Assembly: GCA_965215885.1 (NCBI GenBank)
Contig: CBDCEW010000101.1
Location: 64,001-128,000, forward strand
DNA length: 64,000 bases
Origin: Candidatus Moanibacter sp.
Lineage (GTDB): Bacteria > Verrucomicrobiota > Verrucomicrobiia > Opitutales > UBA2987
Direction: 5' to 3'
Positions 1,252 through 17,616 of this stretch are shown here, piece after piece (the stretch's first letter is position 1; each line of letters opens with the position of its first letter). The notes beneath the pieces were generated by a model. The model was not told where the DNA came from, searched no databases, and saw only the letters and a list, made by a program, of their open reading frames with translations. The position numbers and the translations under genes are program-made.

Positions 1252-1329
1252 TGGTCGGGACGACTGGATTCGAACCAGCGACTTCCTGCTCCCAAAGCAG
1301 GTGCTCTGACCAGGCTGAGCTACGTCCCG
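1252..1329 (-). tRNA. tRNA-Pro(UGG)
   Basis: Reverse complement CGGGACGTAGCTCAGCCTGG...CCTGC-TTTGGGA-GCAGG...GGTTCGAATCC...CCCGACCA folds as a cloverleaf with encoded CCA. Confidence 0.97.
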
Positions 1330-10924: not shown

Positions 10925-11028
10925 TCATTGCGAGACCCGCGTAGCGTGCCGTGGCAATCCAGATCGGGGTGGAAATGTCCTCCTGCACTTCTGGATCGCC
11001 GCGCCTCCCTTCGGGCGGCTCGCGATGA
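10925..11028. repeat. Nested palindromic element
   Basis: Outer arms TCATTGCGAG/CTCGCGATGA; inner arms CGTGGCAATCCAGA/TCTGGATCGCCGCG. Confidence 0.7.
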
Positions 11029-11054
11029 CAGTGTGCTACTATCGAAGTGCGGTA

Positions 11055-12362
11055 CTAATAGATACCACAGACTGCGCCGGCATCTTTCAGGATTTCGACG
11101 GTGGCGTTGTGGTTTGCTTGCATGGCGTAATCGAGGGGAGTGAGTCCGTCGTCGTCAACCGCGTTCAGATCGCCTGGCGCTAAAGCCATGACCCGGTTGA
11201 AGACCTCAGCATACTCCCCTTGGAATGGAGCCGCCGCCAGATGCAATATGGTTGCTCCATGTGTATTTCGCTTGGAAAGGGAAGCCCCTTTGTCGATAAG
11301 CCACTCCATCGTTTCGGCATGTCCTTCCAGAACGGCAAAATGAAAAGGCGTGCAGCCATCTTCTTTGAATTTTTGCGAATTCGATCGACCGCTGAAGTTA
11401 CCCTTAACATCGGTTGCCGCGACGCGATACGCGGCGATTTCCGCCGGTTCAGCGGAAGAGCTGGCCAGATCGATATCTACGCCTGCATCCAGGTTTCGTT
11501 GAATGAGCGGAATGCGGCTTTGAATCGCCGCCCAGTGGATGGCGTTATTGCCAAGAGTCGAGGTGGCTGAAAGATCGGCTCCCGCTTCCAGGAGAATGTC
11601 GAAAATCTCGATTCGTCCCCAGATTCCGGCCATGAGAAGCGGGGTCCATCGATAAAGACCCTTCTCGACAAAATACTCGTCCCAGACGAACCAGTGAGCC
11701 TTTCTAAGCGGGCGGTTTGGATCTTCGCCGCGATTCAAAAGATGGCCTACGACCTCAGGTCGATTCGTCAGGATCGGGTACTGGATGGGAAACACGTCGT
11801 GAACGGTCTGGTTGAGCGCTTGAGGATACTTATCCAGATAAGCATCAATCGCCGCGAGGTCACCGAGTCCGCAAGCAGACCAAAGGTCCATTTCCGCTCC
11901 GTTTTCCAGTAGCAGCTCAACGTTGGGCGTGAACTTCCTTGATCGGGAACGGAAGGTCGCCAGTTGAAGGACCGAGCGACCGAATTCATCCTTCGCTTCG
12001 ATCAGTTGTTCCCTTTCTTGAGGGTTGTTTTCGAATAGTTCGCGGACCGTTTCGACGCCACCTCCATTGATCGCCTGAACAAATCGTTCTGTGAGGCTCT
12101 TGGAGCCCGCCAACCCCTCCATGTGCCGCTTCAACTTCGTCCAGCTTTCAAAGCCGTATTCTTGAGCGACGACGAACTGGGCGTTCGAAAGGCTGAGAGG
12201 CCGGTTGTGGATGGCTTCGTCGCCGAGGGTTGCCAGCGAACGATCAGAATTTCTGATTCGTTTTGCGGCTTCGCTCGATCTCTGCGAGTGTTGGCGTCGA
12301 AGCGATTTCGCCTGTTTCCTGAAGTTCTCGAAACTGGCGTTTTCGGGTACTGATATAGTCAT
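11055..12362 (-). CDS. Ankyrin repeat protein with an N-terminal E..RKQAK...AQ.V.A.EYGF.SW domain
   Basis: Several TPL/TPF/TILH ankyrin repeats. Confidence 0.9.
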   Translation of the reverse strand: MTISVPENASFENFRKQAKSLRRQHSQRSSEAAKRIRNSDRSLATLGDEAIHNRPLSLSNAQFVVAQEYGFESWTKLKRHMEGLAGSKSLTERFVQAINGGGVETVRELFENNPQEREQLIEAKDEFGRSVLQLATFRSRSRKFTPNVELLLENGAEMDLWSACGLGDLAAIDAYLDKYPQALNQTVHDVFPIQYPILTNRPEVVGHLLNRGEDPNRPLRKAHWFVWDEYFVEKGLYRWTPLLMAGIWGRIEIFDILLEAGADLSATSTLGNNAIHWAAIQSRIPLIQRNLDAGVDIDLASSSAEPAEIAAYRVAATDVKGNFSGRSNSQKFKEDGCTPFHFAVLEGHAETMEWLIDKGASLSKRNTHGATILHLAAAPFQGEYAEVFNRVMALAPGDLNAVDDDGLTPLDYAMQANHNATVEILKDAGAVCGIY

Positions 12363-12486
12363 GCAAACCTACTTTCAATTAAGCGCCTGTTGTCTGCATA
12401 ACCGGCTGAAAGAAGGTGAATCAGTATATGTCAAAGACAGGCTTAGCCATTTCCGCAGACTGGAGGTTGTCTTCAGCAACCGTCAT
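12363..12486 (-). ncRNA. Candidate structured 5' leader RNA with a pseudoknot
   Basis: Four complementary segment pairs, one crossing the others, one covering the RBS. Confidence 0.45.
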
Positions 12487-12665
12487 TAAAGTTTGCGAAT
12501 TTTCCGAATTGGTCAATGATTTTGAACTCCATGTTTGAGCGAGATCTCCTTAGGATATGATCAGTTGATACCGATCATTGAGGCCGAGAATGTAGCGTCT
12601 ATCCGAGTAACAGAATTCAACGAAGTATCGGGAGTCAGAAGAGACTAAATTGGCCGGACGATTGT

Positions 12666-12834: not shown

Positions 12835-13053
12835 ATGCGTGGAGAATTTACTGTATTGATTGAGGCAGCTGAGGAAGGTGGCTTCTGGGCCACTTGCCCG
12901 GAGGTACCCGGAGCCAATGGTCAAGGCGAAACGGTTGAGAAGACAAAAGCCAACCTTGCAGAGGCCATTCGCCTGGTGATGCGAGATCGCGTAGAGGATG
13001 CCACTCGTGGATTGCCTGATGGCGCGATCAAGGATATCGTTACCGTTGAATGA
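12835..13053 (+). CDS. hicB: HicB-family antitoxin
   Basis: EEGGFWATCPEVPGANGQGET. Confidence 0.88.
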   Translation: MRGEFTVLIEAAEEGGFWATCPEVPGANGQGETVEKTKANLAEAIRLVMRDRVEDATRGLPDGAIKDIVTVE

Positions 13054-13238
13054 AGCGGTTTAGGCTGCTAAAGCATCTCAGGCGTAGCGGATGTTACTTA
13101 AAGAGAGAGGGTTCTTCTCATTCGTTGTGGATCAATCCTGAAAATGGGGTGACAGAGGCCGTGCCTCGGCACACCGAGGTCAAAGAAGGTTTAGCTCGGA
13201 AGATCTGTCACAGGCTGCAGATTCCGGACCCGAACTAG
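13050..13238 (+). CDS. hicA: HicA-family toxin
   Basis: REGSSHSLW..VPRH.E; overlaps hicB. Confidence 0.88.
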   Translation: MKRFRLLKHLRRSGCYLKREGSSHSLWINPENGVTEAVPRHTEVKEGLARKICHRLQIPDPN

Positions 13239-14500: not shown

Positions 14501-14774
14501 GGGTTTCAGGTGTCACTGGGAAGGTTTCAGGGGGCAGTGTTCAGGAGCTTCACACTTAAGTCCCCAAACAGACACGTGAAACCAAGAACCTCGAACCATG
14601 TTCAGTTTTCAACATCCAACGCCCAACATCCAATGTCCAAGTGGGGACCTCCGGTAGGACACTTTGTCGTAAGCTTTGTCGCGAACTTTGTCGAATTCGA
14701 TTCAACCAATCTCCTGATTCTCGGAGCATTAGGTCCTTCGTCGTCATATACACTAACACCCGAAACCTGACACC
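14501..14774. repeat. Nested short-period (7- and 12-bp) repeat arms
   Basis: GTTTCAGGTGTCA.. versus ..CCGAAACCTGACACC; CAACATC/CAACGCC 7-mers; CTTTGTCGNNAR x3 at 14662-14695. Confidence 0.6.
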
Positions 14775-14862
14775 ATTAACCGGCCACAGGCAGCGAACCA
14801 CCAGGCACCGGCCTCAAGCTTTGCGCTCGCGAAGTGCCGACAGAGCAATATCAGTTTCTCTA

Positions 14863-17616
14863 ATGGAGTTGGATTTACCTGTACCCGGGCAGCGCTGGGT
14901 GAGTGATTCCGAACCTGAACTCGGGCTCGGTATAATTGTATCGTCGGATTCAGGTCGGGTGGGGATTCTCTTCTCGGCGGCGCGGGAGCGTCGCCAATAT
15001 GCGTTGGAATCGGCTCCTCTACGCCGGGTGCACTTCAAAATTGGGGACAGGATCCGCACTCGCGGCGGTAAGGAGTTGCATGTCGAAGGCGTCGAGGAGA
15101 AGAATGGATTGCTGGCATACGAGGCGGATGGGTCAAAGGTGCCGGAAGCGGAACTGGCTGATTCCATCAGTTTCAGTAAGCCGGAGGAAAGATTCCTCGG
15201 TGGACAGATCGATGATCCGGAACTCTTCGATCTTCGGGTGGAGGCCTTGCAATGGCGAAGCCGGATACGAAAATCGCCCGTTCGAGGGTTTATCGGAGGG
15301 CGGGTGGACCTGATTCCGCATCAGCTATACATCAGCAGCGAAGTCGCCTCGCGACTGAATCCCCGTGTGCTTCTGGCGGATGAGGTAGGCCTTGGCAAGA
15401 CGATTGAAGCATGCCTGATCCTGCACCGGTTGTACCTGACCGGGCGAGCGGAACGAATCCTCATCCTTGTTCCGGAGTCGCTCATCCACCAATGGTTTGT
15501 GGAACTTTTGAGGCGCTTCAACCTGCTCTTTAATCTCTTCGACGAGGAACGCTGCGAGTCGATCCAGGGTGAGGATGCGCAGACAAACCCGTTTCTCGAT
15601 AGCCAATTGATTCTCTGCAGCATCGAATTCCTTGTAGCGGACCCGCGAAGATCGCGTGAAGTGACGAAAGCGGGTTGGGATCTGCTTGTGATCGATGAAG
15701 CGCATCACCTCATGTGGTCACCCGCGGAAGCGAGCGCGGAATATCTGCTGGCAGATGAATTGGCCTCCCGGACACCTTCCCTTCTTCTCTTGACGGCGAC
15801 ACCGCAACAGCTGGGAATGGAGGGTCATTTTGCTCGCCTGAGATTATTGGATCCTGATCGTTATTCGAACTTCGAAGCATTTATCGCCGAATCCAGGCAA
15901 TACATCGAAGTTGCTACGGCAGTGGATCGATTGATCGATGGCGCGCCGCTGGACAGCGCGGACCGGGATTTGTTCGCGGCGAGATCGCCGAGAATACATC
16001 GTGATTACGATGCCTTGATGGCTGGTGACGAATCGGCTCGAATACGGTTGATCGGGGAACTCCTCGACGCTTTTGGAACGGGACGTGTCATGTTTCGCAA
16101 CACGCGCACGGCCCTTACCGGGTTTCCGATTCGTCATGTGCACCTCTACCCGATCGAGCGCAGTGAATCGGCGGATTCCGATGCGAGTGTTGAAGCGTAT
16201 GGCAGGTGGCTTGCAAATCTCCTTAATGATCTGGGAGAAGAGAAGGTTCTTCTCATCTGCAAGACACCGGGTCTCGTGCGCGAGATCGAGGCGAGGCTGG
16301 AACGGGAGATCTCCGTTAACTGCGGTCAGTTTCATGAAGAAATGAACCTGATGCAGCGCGACCGCACGGCTGCCTGGTTCGCTGAGGAAGAGGGGGCACG
16401 CATCCTTCTCTGTTCGGAGATCGGCAGTGAGGGTCGGAATTTCCAGTTTGTGCACCATCTCGTATGCTTCGATCTGCCGGATGATCCGGAGCTGCTGGAG
16501 CAGCGAATCGGCCGTCTCGACCGCATCGGTCAGAACGAAGCCATTCACATTCACATTCCCTACGTTCCCGGTGGCGCCTCGGAAGTCATGGCTCGTTGGT
16601 ATCATGAGGGCCTGAATGCCTTCGAAGAGAACCTCCATGGGGCCACAGAGATCGCGTTGAATCTGAAAGCGGATTTGGATGGGTTGCGGCAAACGTTCGA
16701 TACCGTGGCGCTTGATCGGTTCGTGGCGCGGACCGCGAAACGGAAGAGCCATATAACGCGGAGACTCGAGCGGGGACACGATCGACTACTGGAATTGAAC
16801 TCTTCCAACCCGGAACGGGCGGAGGAAGTCATCAAGCGCATCCGTGCGAGTGACGCCGACAGCGAATTCGAAGATTTCATCCTGAATCTGATCGATCACT
16901 TCGGGCTTCGCCGGGAGGAGCATAGTGAGCGCACCTTTGTCCTTAAACACGGCGATCTCGTTACCGAAGATTTGCCCGGTTTGCCTGAGGAGGGTATGAC
17001 GCTGACTCTGGATCGAATAAGAGCTCTGAGCCGCGAGGATATTCATTTTCTGAGTGGAGACCATCCGCTCGTTCGCGGTGCACTCGACATCCTGCTCAGT
17101 TCAGAGTCGGGAAATACTGCCTATTGTATCTGGCCGCAGTCCGACGAAGAGGGTTTGGTTCTGGAGTTGCTCTCCGTGGCGGAATGTGTGGCACCGCCGG
17201 TTCTGCATGTTGACCGGTTCCTTCCTGCAACGGCCATTCGGACCGTAGTCGACCACGATCTCAATGATCTCAGCGATGACGCCGAGCTGCTATCCGCCCC
17301 GCTGCAAAGAGGAGATCCTGATCCCCTGATTTCGCGGAACTCATTCAGACGAAATGTTCTTCCCAGGATGCTCAGATCGGCGTTTGGCTTGGCTGAAAAA
17401 CGGATGCATGCTCTTGTAGCGGAGGCGAGGAGCTGCGGAGAGAATCACTACCAGAACGAAATCGATCGTCTTGTCGATCTCAAGGAGGTCAATGACCATG
17501 TGCGCCAAGAAGAGATTCAAGCGCTGATAGACGAGAAAGTCGCCCTGGCAGGCGTATTGGATTCCACCCATCTGCGCTCCGATGCCCTCCGGGTTATCTG
17601 GAAGATTGAGGCTTGA
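14863..17616 (+). CDS. rapA: RNA polymerase-associated SNF2 ATPase RapA
   Basis: GQRWVSDSEPELGLG, LADEVGLGKT, DEAHH, SEIGSEGRNFQF, EQRIGRLDRIGQ. Confidence 0.95.
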   Translation: MELDLPVPGQRWVSDSEPELGLGIIVSSDSGRVGILFSAARERRQYALESAPLRRVHFKIGDRIRTRGGKELHVEGVEEKNGLLAYEADGSKVPEAELADSISFSKPEERFLGGQIDDPELFDLRVEALQWRSRIRKSPVRGFIGGRVDLIPHQLYISSEVASRLNPRVLLADEVGLGKTIEACLILHRLYLTGRAERILILVPESLIHQWFVELLRRFNLLFNLFDEERCESIQGEDAQTNPFLDSQLILCSIEFLVADPRRSREVTKAGWDLLVIDEAHHLMWSPAEASAEYLLADELASRTPSLLLLTATPQQLGMEGHFARLRLLDPDRYSNFEAFIAESRQYIEVATAVDRLIDGAPLDSADRDLFAARSPRIHRDYDALMAGDESARIRLIGELLDAFGTGRVMFRNTRTALTGFPIRHVHLYPIERSESADSDASVEAYGRWLANLLNDLGEEKVLLICKTPGLVREIEARLEREISVNCGQFHEEMNLMQRDRTAAWFAEEEGARILLCSEIGSEGRNFQFVHHLVCFDLPDDPELLEQRIGRLDRIGQNEAIHIHIPYVPGGASEVMARWYHEGLNAFEENLHGATEIALNLKADLDGLRQTFDTVALDRFVARTAKRKSHITRRLERGHDRLLELNSSNPERAEEVIKRIRASDADSEFEDFILNLIDHFGLRREEHSERTFVLKHGDLVTEDLPGLPEEGMTLTLDRIRALSREDIHFLSGDHPLVRGALDILLSSESGNTAYCIWPQSDEEGLVLELLSVAECVAPPVLHVDRFLPATAIRTVVDHDLNDLSDDAELLSAPLQRGDPDPLISRNSFRRNVLPRMLRSAFGLAEKRMHALVAEARSCGENHYQNEIDRLVDLKEVNDHVRQEEIQALIDEKVALAGVLDSTHLRSDALRVIWKIEA

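Follow-up and report, generated by a model that had tools for sequence, protein, structure and literature searches.

The ankyrin gene and its leader

The window analysed here is a stretch of 64,000 nucleotides from Candidatus Moanibacter sp., which carries on its minus strand the gene of an ankyrin-repeat protein preceded by a structured leader and a predicted promoter:

11055..12362, minus strand: ORF of 435 aa, N-terminal domain followed by ankyrin repeats
12111..12362, minus strand: N-terminal helical domain (residues 1-84), homologous to the N-terminus of Glyoxalase_8 and proposed to bind RNA
12363..12482, minus strand: complete structured 5' leader RNA of type I, about 120 nt, by CM R1 match and covariation
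12488..12493, minus strand: predicted -10 hexamer, weak, assigned by sequence and spacing (17-nt spacer)
12511..12516, minus strand: predicted sigma70-type -35 hexamer TTGACC, its start 56 nt 5' of PK2

As an earlier note on this DNA had stated, the gene downstream of the leader encodes an ankyrin protein that starts with E..RKQAK...AQ.V.A.EYGF.SW. Residues 1-85 of this 435-aa protein have no Pfam name, and a convergent rhaM gene faces the stop of the ORF. The -10 hexamer was missed by a consensus promoter scan; transcription would start near position 12481. Among 199 homologous loci, 121 carry -35-like 5-mers at -54 to -57 from PK2. Since a -35 word stands at this constant distance before PK2, the RNA probably represents the entire 5' UTR.

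Architecture of the leader RNA

Across the family, the RNA is about 125 nt long and comprises P1, PK1, a short P2 and P3, the kissing loop PK2 and a long hairpin P4. The P1 loop pairs with the bases directly behind P3, forming PK1. P2 consists of 2-3 bp and a loop containing GUCCGC, followed by the conserved GGAAA and P3. A variable linker of 16-54 nt leads from P3 to P4, whose loop contains GCGGAC and kisses the P2 loop, and whose lower stem is made of a pyrimidine tract and the Shine-Dalgarno (SD) sequence. The copy in the window is matched by CM R1 at 12354-12484 (minus strand) with 73.9 bits, the window sequence being part of the training set, and is built as follows:

12466..12480, minus strand: P1 hairpin, 12480-12477 with 12469-12466 (97% paired)
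12473-12470, minus strand: PK1 5' strand AAGA, which is the P1 loop
12452..12464, minus strand: P2, UCC 12464-12462 with GGA 12454-12452; its loop contains the PK2 5' strand
12460-12455, minus strand: PK2 5' strand GUCUGC, in the P2 loop
12440..12448, minus strand: P3 hairpin GGC-UAA-GCC (99% paired)
12434..12437, minus strand: PK1 3' strand UCUU, partner of AAGA 12473-12470 (top mutual-information pair in both alignments)
12402..12417, minus strand: P4 5' arm, anti-SD ACCUUCUUUCA 12417-12407 and P4b GCCGG 12406-12402
12392..12397, minus strand: PK2 3' strand GCAGAC in the P4 loop, kissing the P2 loop (100% paired, 78 sequences)
12367..12389, minus strand: P4 3' arm, CAGGC 12389-12385, an internal loop and UGAAAGUAGGU 12377-12367

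The segment UGAAAGUAGGU (12377-12367) holds the ribosome-binding site (RBS) and ends 4 nt before the AUG; it forms 10 of 11 pairs with ACCUUCUUUCA (12417-12407). In P2, the inner two pairs are 98% paired with GC/AU swaps and the outer pair is weak. The window copy is divergent, with one mismatch each in P3, P4a and P4b; the family form of P3 is GGGC-N3-GCCC, and its outer pair in the window is U.U.

Pseudoknot-free folding of the window leader did not recover the consensus. On the transcribed strand, the leader alone folds no better than its shuffles (z -0.39; 64 of 200 shuffles equally good), so a single sequence proves nothing, and we rejected single-sequence folding of either strand as not diagnostic.

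Covariation across homologs

Mutual information was computed without a given structure on a MAFFT alignment of 46 dissimilar leaders and on a model alignment of 78 sequences, and the top pairs were identical in both. Pairing in the 78 homologs reaches 92.5% of the cells, with two-sided changes in 31 of 35 pairs and a covariation of 0.323, as against 0.153 for shuffled and 0.06-0.11 for slid partners, the slid controls being 38-49% paired. The 46-sequence alignment, fitted to no structure, gave 85.9% paired cells and two-sided changes in 29 of 35 pairs. PK1 and PK2 lie outside the CM, so their counts are unfitted. After tree correction, for which simple parsimony was used rather than R-scape, every one of the 13 top-ranked column pairs (of 8316) fell within the model. 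Compensatory events on the tree numbered 8 in P1 (vs 1.4 joint changes expected), 28 in PK1 (vs 7.4), 7 in P2 (vs 4.1), 5 in PK2 (vs 0.1) and 12 in P3 (vs 0.6); P4a, 83% paired, had 32 (vs 16.8), and P4b, 97% paired, had 19 (vs 3.4).

The RBS-pairing helix P4 covaries with its SD across homologs, and the anti-SD:SD duplex is 4.1 kcal/mol better in cognate than in non-cognate combinations. By the same measure, a candidate ON-state helix joining the anti-SD to the GAAAGGG junction has a cognate advantage of -0.006 kcal/mol and was rejected; no ON-state helix supported by covariation was found. Locking the 5' module raises predicted SD pairing from a median of 0.81 to 0.99, and from 0.50 to 0.81 in the window, a rise that is partly a by-product of competitor removal. 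P4 is predicted to be mostly closed even without ligand. Covarying, sharing the gene's strand, located directly before its start codon and equipped with a promoter and an expression platform, the leader qualifies, as judged from sequence, as a cis-regulatory structured 5' element.

The earlier note had proposed four helices from eight segments, all of which are complementary and lie where it placed them. As a set, however, this 21-pair structure is paired to 71.9% in the 78 homologs, compared with 72.2% after shuffling. One of the helices is conserved: GTCTGC/GCAGAC corresponds to PK2 and is paired in 100% of the 78 homologs. The other three were rejected as conserved structure on the homolog and tree counts, with the outer helix AACCT/AGGTT paired in 46% of the same homologs, GGCT/AGCC in 77% with no compensatory event on the tree, and GCCTGT/ACAGGC in 61% with two such events. 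Because P3 and P4b are alike in sequence, the 3-bp cores of the rejected helices could form as a strand-swapped alternative; this alternative shows no covariation. The region itself is conserved as a structured RNA far beyond chance. A helix covering the RBS does exist, although it is 12417-12407/12377-12367 rather than the one that had been named, and the leader is indeed pseudoknotted, with two pseudoknots in the conserved fold, but not through the crossing that had been proposed.

Co-occurrence of the RNA and the N-terminal domain

By tblastn and profile searches, we found six loci encoding the N-terminal domain in the genome of the window. All five with enough upstream DNA have the RNA motif, in one case with an intervening 50-aa ORF, and the genome holds five RNA copies besides that of the window. 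In the phylum of the window, the domain was matched in 10 of 301 genomes; outside the window's own genome, the motif precedes 14 of 14 full-domain loci, and one more (the fifteenth) sits where its contig ends. Scanning GTDB, we confirmed 578 loci. The best 80 of these carry the complete motif in 77 cases, a number that does not count independent events, as the loci are kin to one another (many are Acidobacteriota); the other three are broken by contig ends. The search queries had been derived from motif-bearing loci. These best 80 are mostly from Acidobacteriota and include Verrucomicrobiota, Pseudomonadota, Actinomycetota, Chloroflexota, Gemmatimonadota, Haliangiales and Chthonomonas records. 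New samples of 251 Actinomycetota and 301 Pseudomonadota genomes had domain matches in 9 and 15 genomes, respectively, and 19 of 23 new domain loci have a CM match (E<=0.01) directly upstream. Of the four loci without an RNA match, L281 is a fragment and L282 a short copy; L299 and L300 are divergent DUF1835 fusions.

Searching from the RNA side, a 25-nt pattern taken from the 5' module retrieved at least 120 metagenome loci and two viral loci. Where at least 330 nt were available downstream, the domain is encoded in 69 of 71 cases, and both exceptions contain the 5' half of the RNA only. At a shorter locus (L201), the PK2 strand is lost and the ORF ends after 8 codons. A CM search of 61 further genomes, not exhaustive in that 54 candidates were scored per genome, yielded four new matches, all four before the domain. 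As an exception to this pairing, the window's genome contains an intact RNA (L253, G000:C22:18961-19091, minus strand, 64.8 bits) that is followed by a start codon and then a stop, with an ankyrin-like remnant lacking the N-terminal domain downstream.

Between the RNA and the domain gene at L004:1650-1950 (G000:C37), a short ORF (50 aa, no Pfam match) overlaps the start of the domain gene; a similar gap between RNA and domain gene is seen at L263.

What follows the domain varies. Among 61 proteins from the RNA-first search, ankyrin repeats stand behind it in 36, and FliG_C, Clp_N and DUF4440 in one each; 22 have no Pfam match in the roughly 270 aa available. Carboxypeptidase-regulatory, DUF1835 and glyoxalase domains were found as well at hand-picked loci. 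The upstream neighbours are not conserved, with 142 ORFs falling in 122 clusters. The leader is tied to a single downstream protein module, as would be expected of an autogenous protein-binding leader. Plasmid searches returned 0 and 1 short matches, and viral contigs gave no domain loci; a loose type II pattern hit 114 loci in viral contigs, none with the domain, and was set aside as chance.

The N-terminal domain

The domain comprises 8351 clusters (50% identity, E<=0.001) and is nearly always N-terminal among the 150 matches listed. Its consensus reads LPxRPxLEQLKKQAKxLL, a spacer of 0-45 aa, then LxDAQLVIAREYGFxSWxKLK; the AlphaFold2 model is helical (pLDDT 86), and the minimal domain is a three-helix unit. 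Among 82 tandem-copy proteins, K/R is kept at the surface positions 15, 16, 19, 23, 35 and 76 in 72-98% of first copies, whereas second copies retain the core A, L, A, A and W with K/R in only 19-40%, a contrast to be read with the profile having been made mostly from first copies. At L235, where the protein starts with a domain of the second-copy type, the RNA was not found. From the co-occurrence and the conserved basic residues, we infer that the N-terminal domain binds its leader RNA.

Fold searches with the domain returned no clear solved relative, which says nothing on the novelty of the fold. DUF1244 (PDB 3fyb and 2o35) was the best or second-best solved fold-alike for both domain types (models m95b2c07ec5fe and m66ceebf3b7c1), with weak Z scores of 3.8 and 5.4; the best match, itself weak (Z 5.4), has an rmsd of 2.3 over 48 aligned positions. 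ANTAR appeared neither in the fold searches nor in the Pfam scans of the domain. The ESM Atlas gave unnamed clusters only, under 0.9, and NCBIfam, PADLOC and PHROGs had no name for the domain. In phages, a BFVD search found stand-alone fold-alikes of 47-73 aa (TM 0.68-0.84, E 0.025-0.35). Xanthomonas phage PhiXhv-7 (L302:901-1062) encodes a domain-like ORF of about 50 aa, with a weak sequence match (E 0.8), which sits in a tight operon after the DNA polymerase and lacks the leader RNA.

Glyoxalase_8 and a second RNA type

The N-terminal domain resembles the first ~55 positions of Glyoxalase_8 (PF20066; hhalign 97.2%, E 3e-11), and the direct Pfam match (E 0.008, 16.7 bits) stays below the cut-off of 23.7 bits. 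We consider these ~55 N-terminal positions homologous to the window's domain, which differs in having an insert of about 25 aa and a type I RNA. The name Glyoxalase_8 derives from the fusion partners, and our literature search found no RNA link or function.

In two Pseudomonadota samples (24 Glyoxalase_8 loci), an RNA of type II precedes every locus that has the N-terminal part (22 of 22) and neither of the two that match the C-terminal part only. In this type, a P3-like hairpin lies inside P2 and GGUGAA replaces GGAAA, with PK1 and the kissing loop as in type I; 88.8% of cells are paired, and covariation is 0.496 vs 0.206 (20 sequences). Its partner domains include VOC, Lon-N and the ClpX zinc finger. 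The two models do not cross-match: CM R1 (type I) hits 0 of 9 type II loci, and CM R2 (type II) 0 of 2 type I loci.

Relation to known RNA and protein families

In Rfam 15, a tRNA at 1255-1329 (minus strand) is the sole match in the window at gathering score, the best hit over the leader having an E value of 4.6, and homologous loci of both types (18 and 17) gave no match over the leader. Our literature search found the RNA family described nowhere, and the motif may stand without a name in supplements or large catalogues (e.g., among the 1.5 million COMPASS clusters of bioRxiv 10.64898/2026.10.21.760802); the supplements of PMC8632094 and PMC6429828 contain no match to it. In the accessible text of the bioRxiv work, a cluster linked to glyoxalase is presented with monooxygenases and NmrA; section 2.2 does not contain the word 'ankyrin'. 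The earlier note had suggested a conserved cis-RNA that would form an autoregulatory or riboswitch-like unit with the N-terminal domain. This core idea is strongly supported, as the homologous upstream regions share a conserved, covarying structure, co-occur strictly with the domain and carry a motif without a name in Rfam 15. We conclude that the leader belongs to a genuine, widespread and apparently undescribed family of RNAs, for which there is a specific candidate partner protein.

The closest parallels are autogenous leaders, such as that of S15 or the 'protein-binding candidates' of Narunsky et al. 2024 (PMC11109978, accessible text), in which a structured 5' UTR directly precedes the gene of a protein that, as proposed, binds this UTR and so restricts translation of its own message. 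Here, instead, the gene encodes no known nucleic-acid-binding protein, the shared part is a separable module placed N-terminally to many unrelated C-terminal domains, and the RNA has two pseudoknots and no match to an Rfam leader. ANTAR, as portrayed in the accessible part of PMC8934654, is likewise a small three-helix domain with many partner domains that acts on leader RNA. Its targets, however, are dual hexaloops, and it works by blocking terminators, mostly those of other operons. The present domain is N-terminal and faces a double pseudoknot and an anti-SD helix in cis, and the consensus contains neither a dual hexaloop motif nor a terminator. With the cobalamin riboswitch, in the available text of PMC6158498, the leader shares a compact 5' module, a variable linker (here 16-54 nt), a regulatory hairpin and a loop-loop contact, but not a sequence or model match, and its gene context is one protein domain rather than a cofactor pathway. 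The leader would work like an autogenous leader with a riboswitch-like architecture, being a member of no tested family.

Proposed mechanism and alternatives

We consider it quite probable that the leader and the N-terminal domain form an autogenous translational switch, in which the domain binds the folded RNA, clamps P4 and represses its own translation. The comparison of homologs shows that a promoter at a set position produces a 5' UTR of about 125 nt, of which P1, PK1, P2, P3 and the conserved junction bases fold into a compact module that docks via PK2 onto P4, with P4 pairing with the SD. With the basic face of its helix 1 and last helix, the domain may bind this module and hold the kissing loop; once bound, it would keep P4 closed, resulting in negative feedback. 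More loosely, the appended domain (ankyrin, VOC, Clp-N, Lon-N, ClpX zinc finger or DUF1835) might bind a partner or ligand and thereby tune the amount of free protein left for the RNA. Across the loci, the RNA stays with the N-terminal domain while the remaining protein is exchanged; promoter, RNA and domain might form a portable dosage-control cassette. The direction of control is uncertain, since there is no covarying ON-state helix and P4 is predicted to be mostly closed anyway.

An extension of this model, which we put forward tentatively and would not bet on, sees phylum-spanning one-component regulators with an RNA output. A ~50-aa RNA-binding domain and its own double-pseudoknot leader would constitute a portable protein-gated riboswitch whose appended domain senses the signal, with orthogonal pairs of RNA and domain types, and stand-alone phage copies would act on host leaders in trans. 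The sensing domain would often be protein- or substrate-binding (ankyrin, Clp-N, Lon-N, ClpX zinc finger, VOC), and the thousands of clusters of the domain would be misfiled as 'glyoxalase' or 'ankyrin'.

An orphan riboswitch, in which binding of a small molecule or ion by the 5' module is relayed through the kissing loop to the RBS hairpin, strikes us as rather unlikely. The N-terminal-domain proteins would then be the regulated genes, and the domain may handle the same signal. The highly conserved junction bases, the two pseudoknots and the loop-loop contact do resemble the cobalamin L5-L13 switch (accessible text of PMC6158498), and the dominance of ankyrins in type I (36/61) makes a shared pathway with a small-molecule signal possible. 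Yet behind the RNA in 69 of 71 RNA-first loci stands the same domain of 45-85 aa, and the other two are half elements; neither a transporter nor a pathway enzyme lacking the domain was seen among these loci, so that the RNA does not stand before unrelated genes of one pathway, and the RNA type tracks the domain type (R1 in 0/9 type II loci, R2 in 0/2 type I loci). Still less probable, in our view, is a stable RNA-protein particle acting in trans or an antitoxin-like RNA, with RBS masking being secondary. Type III toxin-antitoxin systems have tandem RNA repeats and a terminator before a nuclease toxin. A pseudoknotted RNA immediately upstream of its partner gene would fit such a system, as would the stand-alone phage fold-alikes of 47-73 aa, one of them without an upstream leader; in our loci, however, the RNA is a single copy with no tandem repeats and no terminator before the gene, its 3' half is organised around the start site, covarying with the SD, and the domain has no PADLOC match and no match to a toxin family.

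We give little credence to a cassette of promoter, RNA and domain that spreads by recombination and provides constant low expression, in which the structure is passive (stability or damping of translation) and binds nothing specifically. Such a cassette would account for the patchy distribution (10/301, 9/251 and 15/301 genomes), the several copies per genome and the existence of decayed copies, but not for the preservation of two pseudoknots and of unpaired bases across phyla and in two structural types, which exceeds what damping needs, nor for basic residues retained in the first domain copy only. A self-cleaving ribozyme or a DNA-level operator appears the most improbable of all. Small ribozymes often contain two pseudoknots, and helical basic domains often bind DNA; against these parallels, no Rfam ribozyme matched even at E<=10, and the G-U swaps, long-range crossing pairs and SD complementarity indicate single-stranded RNA.

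Large RNA families that cross phyla, have two pseudoknots and lie outside Rfam are rare, and the one described here brings a candidate partner amenable to immediate testing (a 50-85-aa domain and a 125-nt RNA). If the proposed binding holds true, it would give a function to a domain found in about 8000 protein clusters, Pfam Glyoxalase_8 would be re-read as an RNA-linked module, a modular RNA-binding regulator would be added beside ANTAR, and synthetic biology would gain natural, possibly orthogonal RNA-protein feedback parts. If the ligand is instead a small molecule, the leader would represent a new widespread riboswitch class.

Other features of the window

A hicBA-like pair lies at 12835-13238 (plus strand), comprising a HicB-like gene (E 7e-5, under the cut-off) and a HicA toxin gene (E 8e-9). 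The antitoxin gene comes first, and the pair is divergent from the leader and is not kept beside the homologous loci. Directly behind the ankyrin stop, at 10925-11040, lies an inverted-repeat element that looks to us like a REP-type palindromic repeat; the interval 10987-11063 is matched by many unrelated contigs. One related contig joins places within 12097-12432 (runs X1 and X3), with the 3' half of the RNA and the N-terminal domain seemingly both absent, and single contigs in runs X4 and X5 have 1-2 additional bases after 12152; these differences may be assembly errors. Further along, the plus-strand ORF at 14641-17616 presumably encodes a RapA/HepA-like SNF2 helicase, its translation having been judged by eye.
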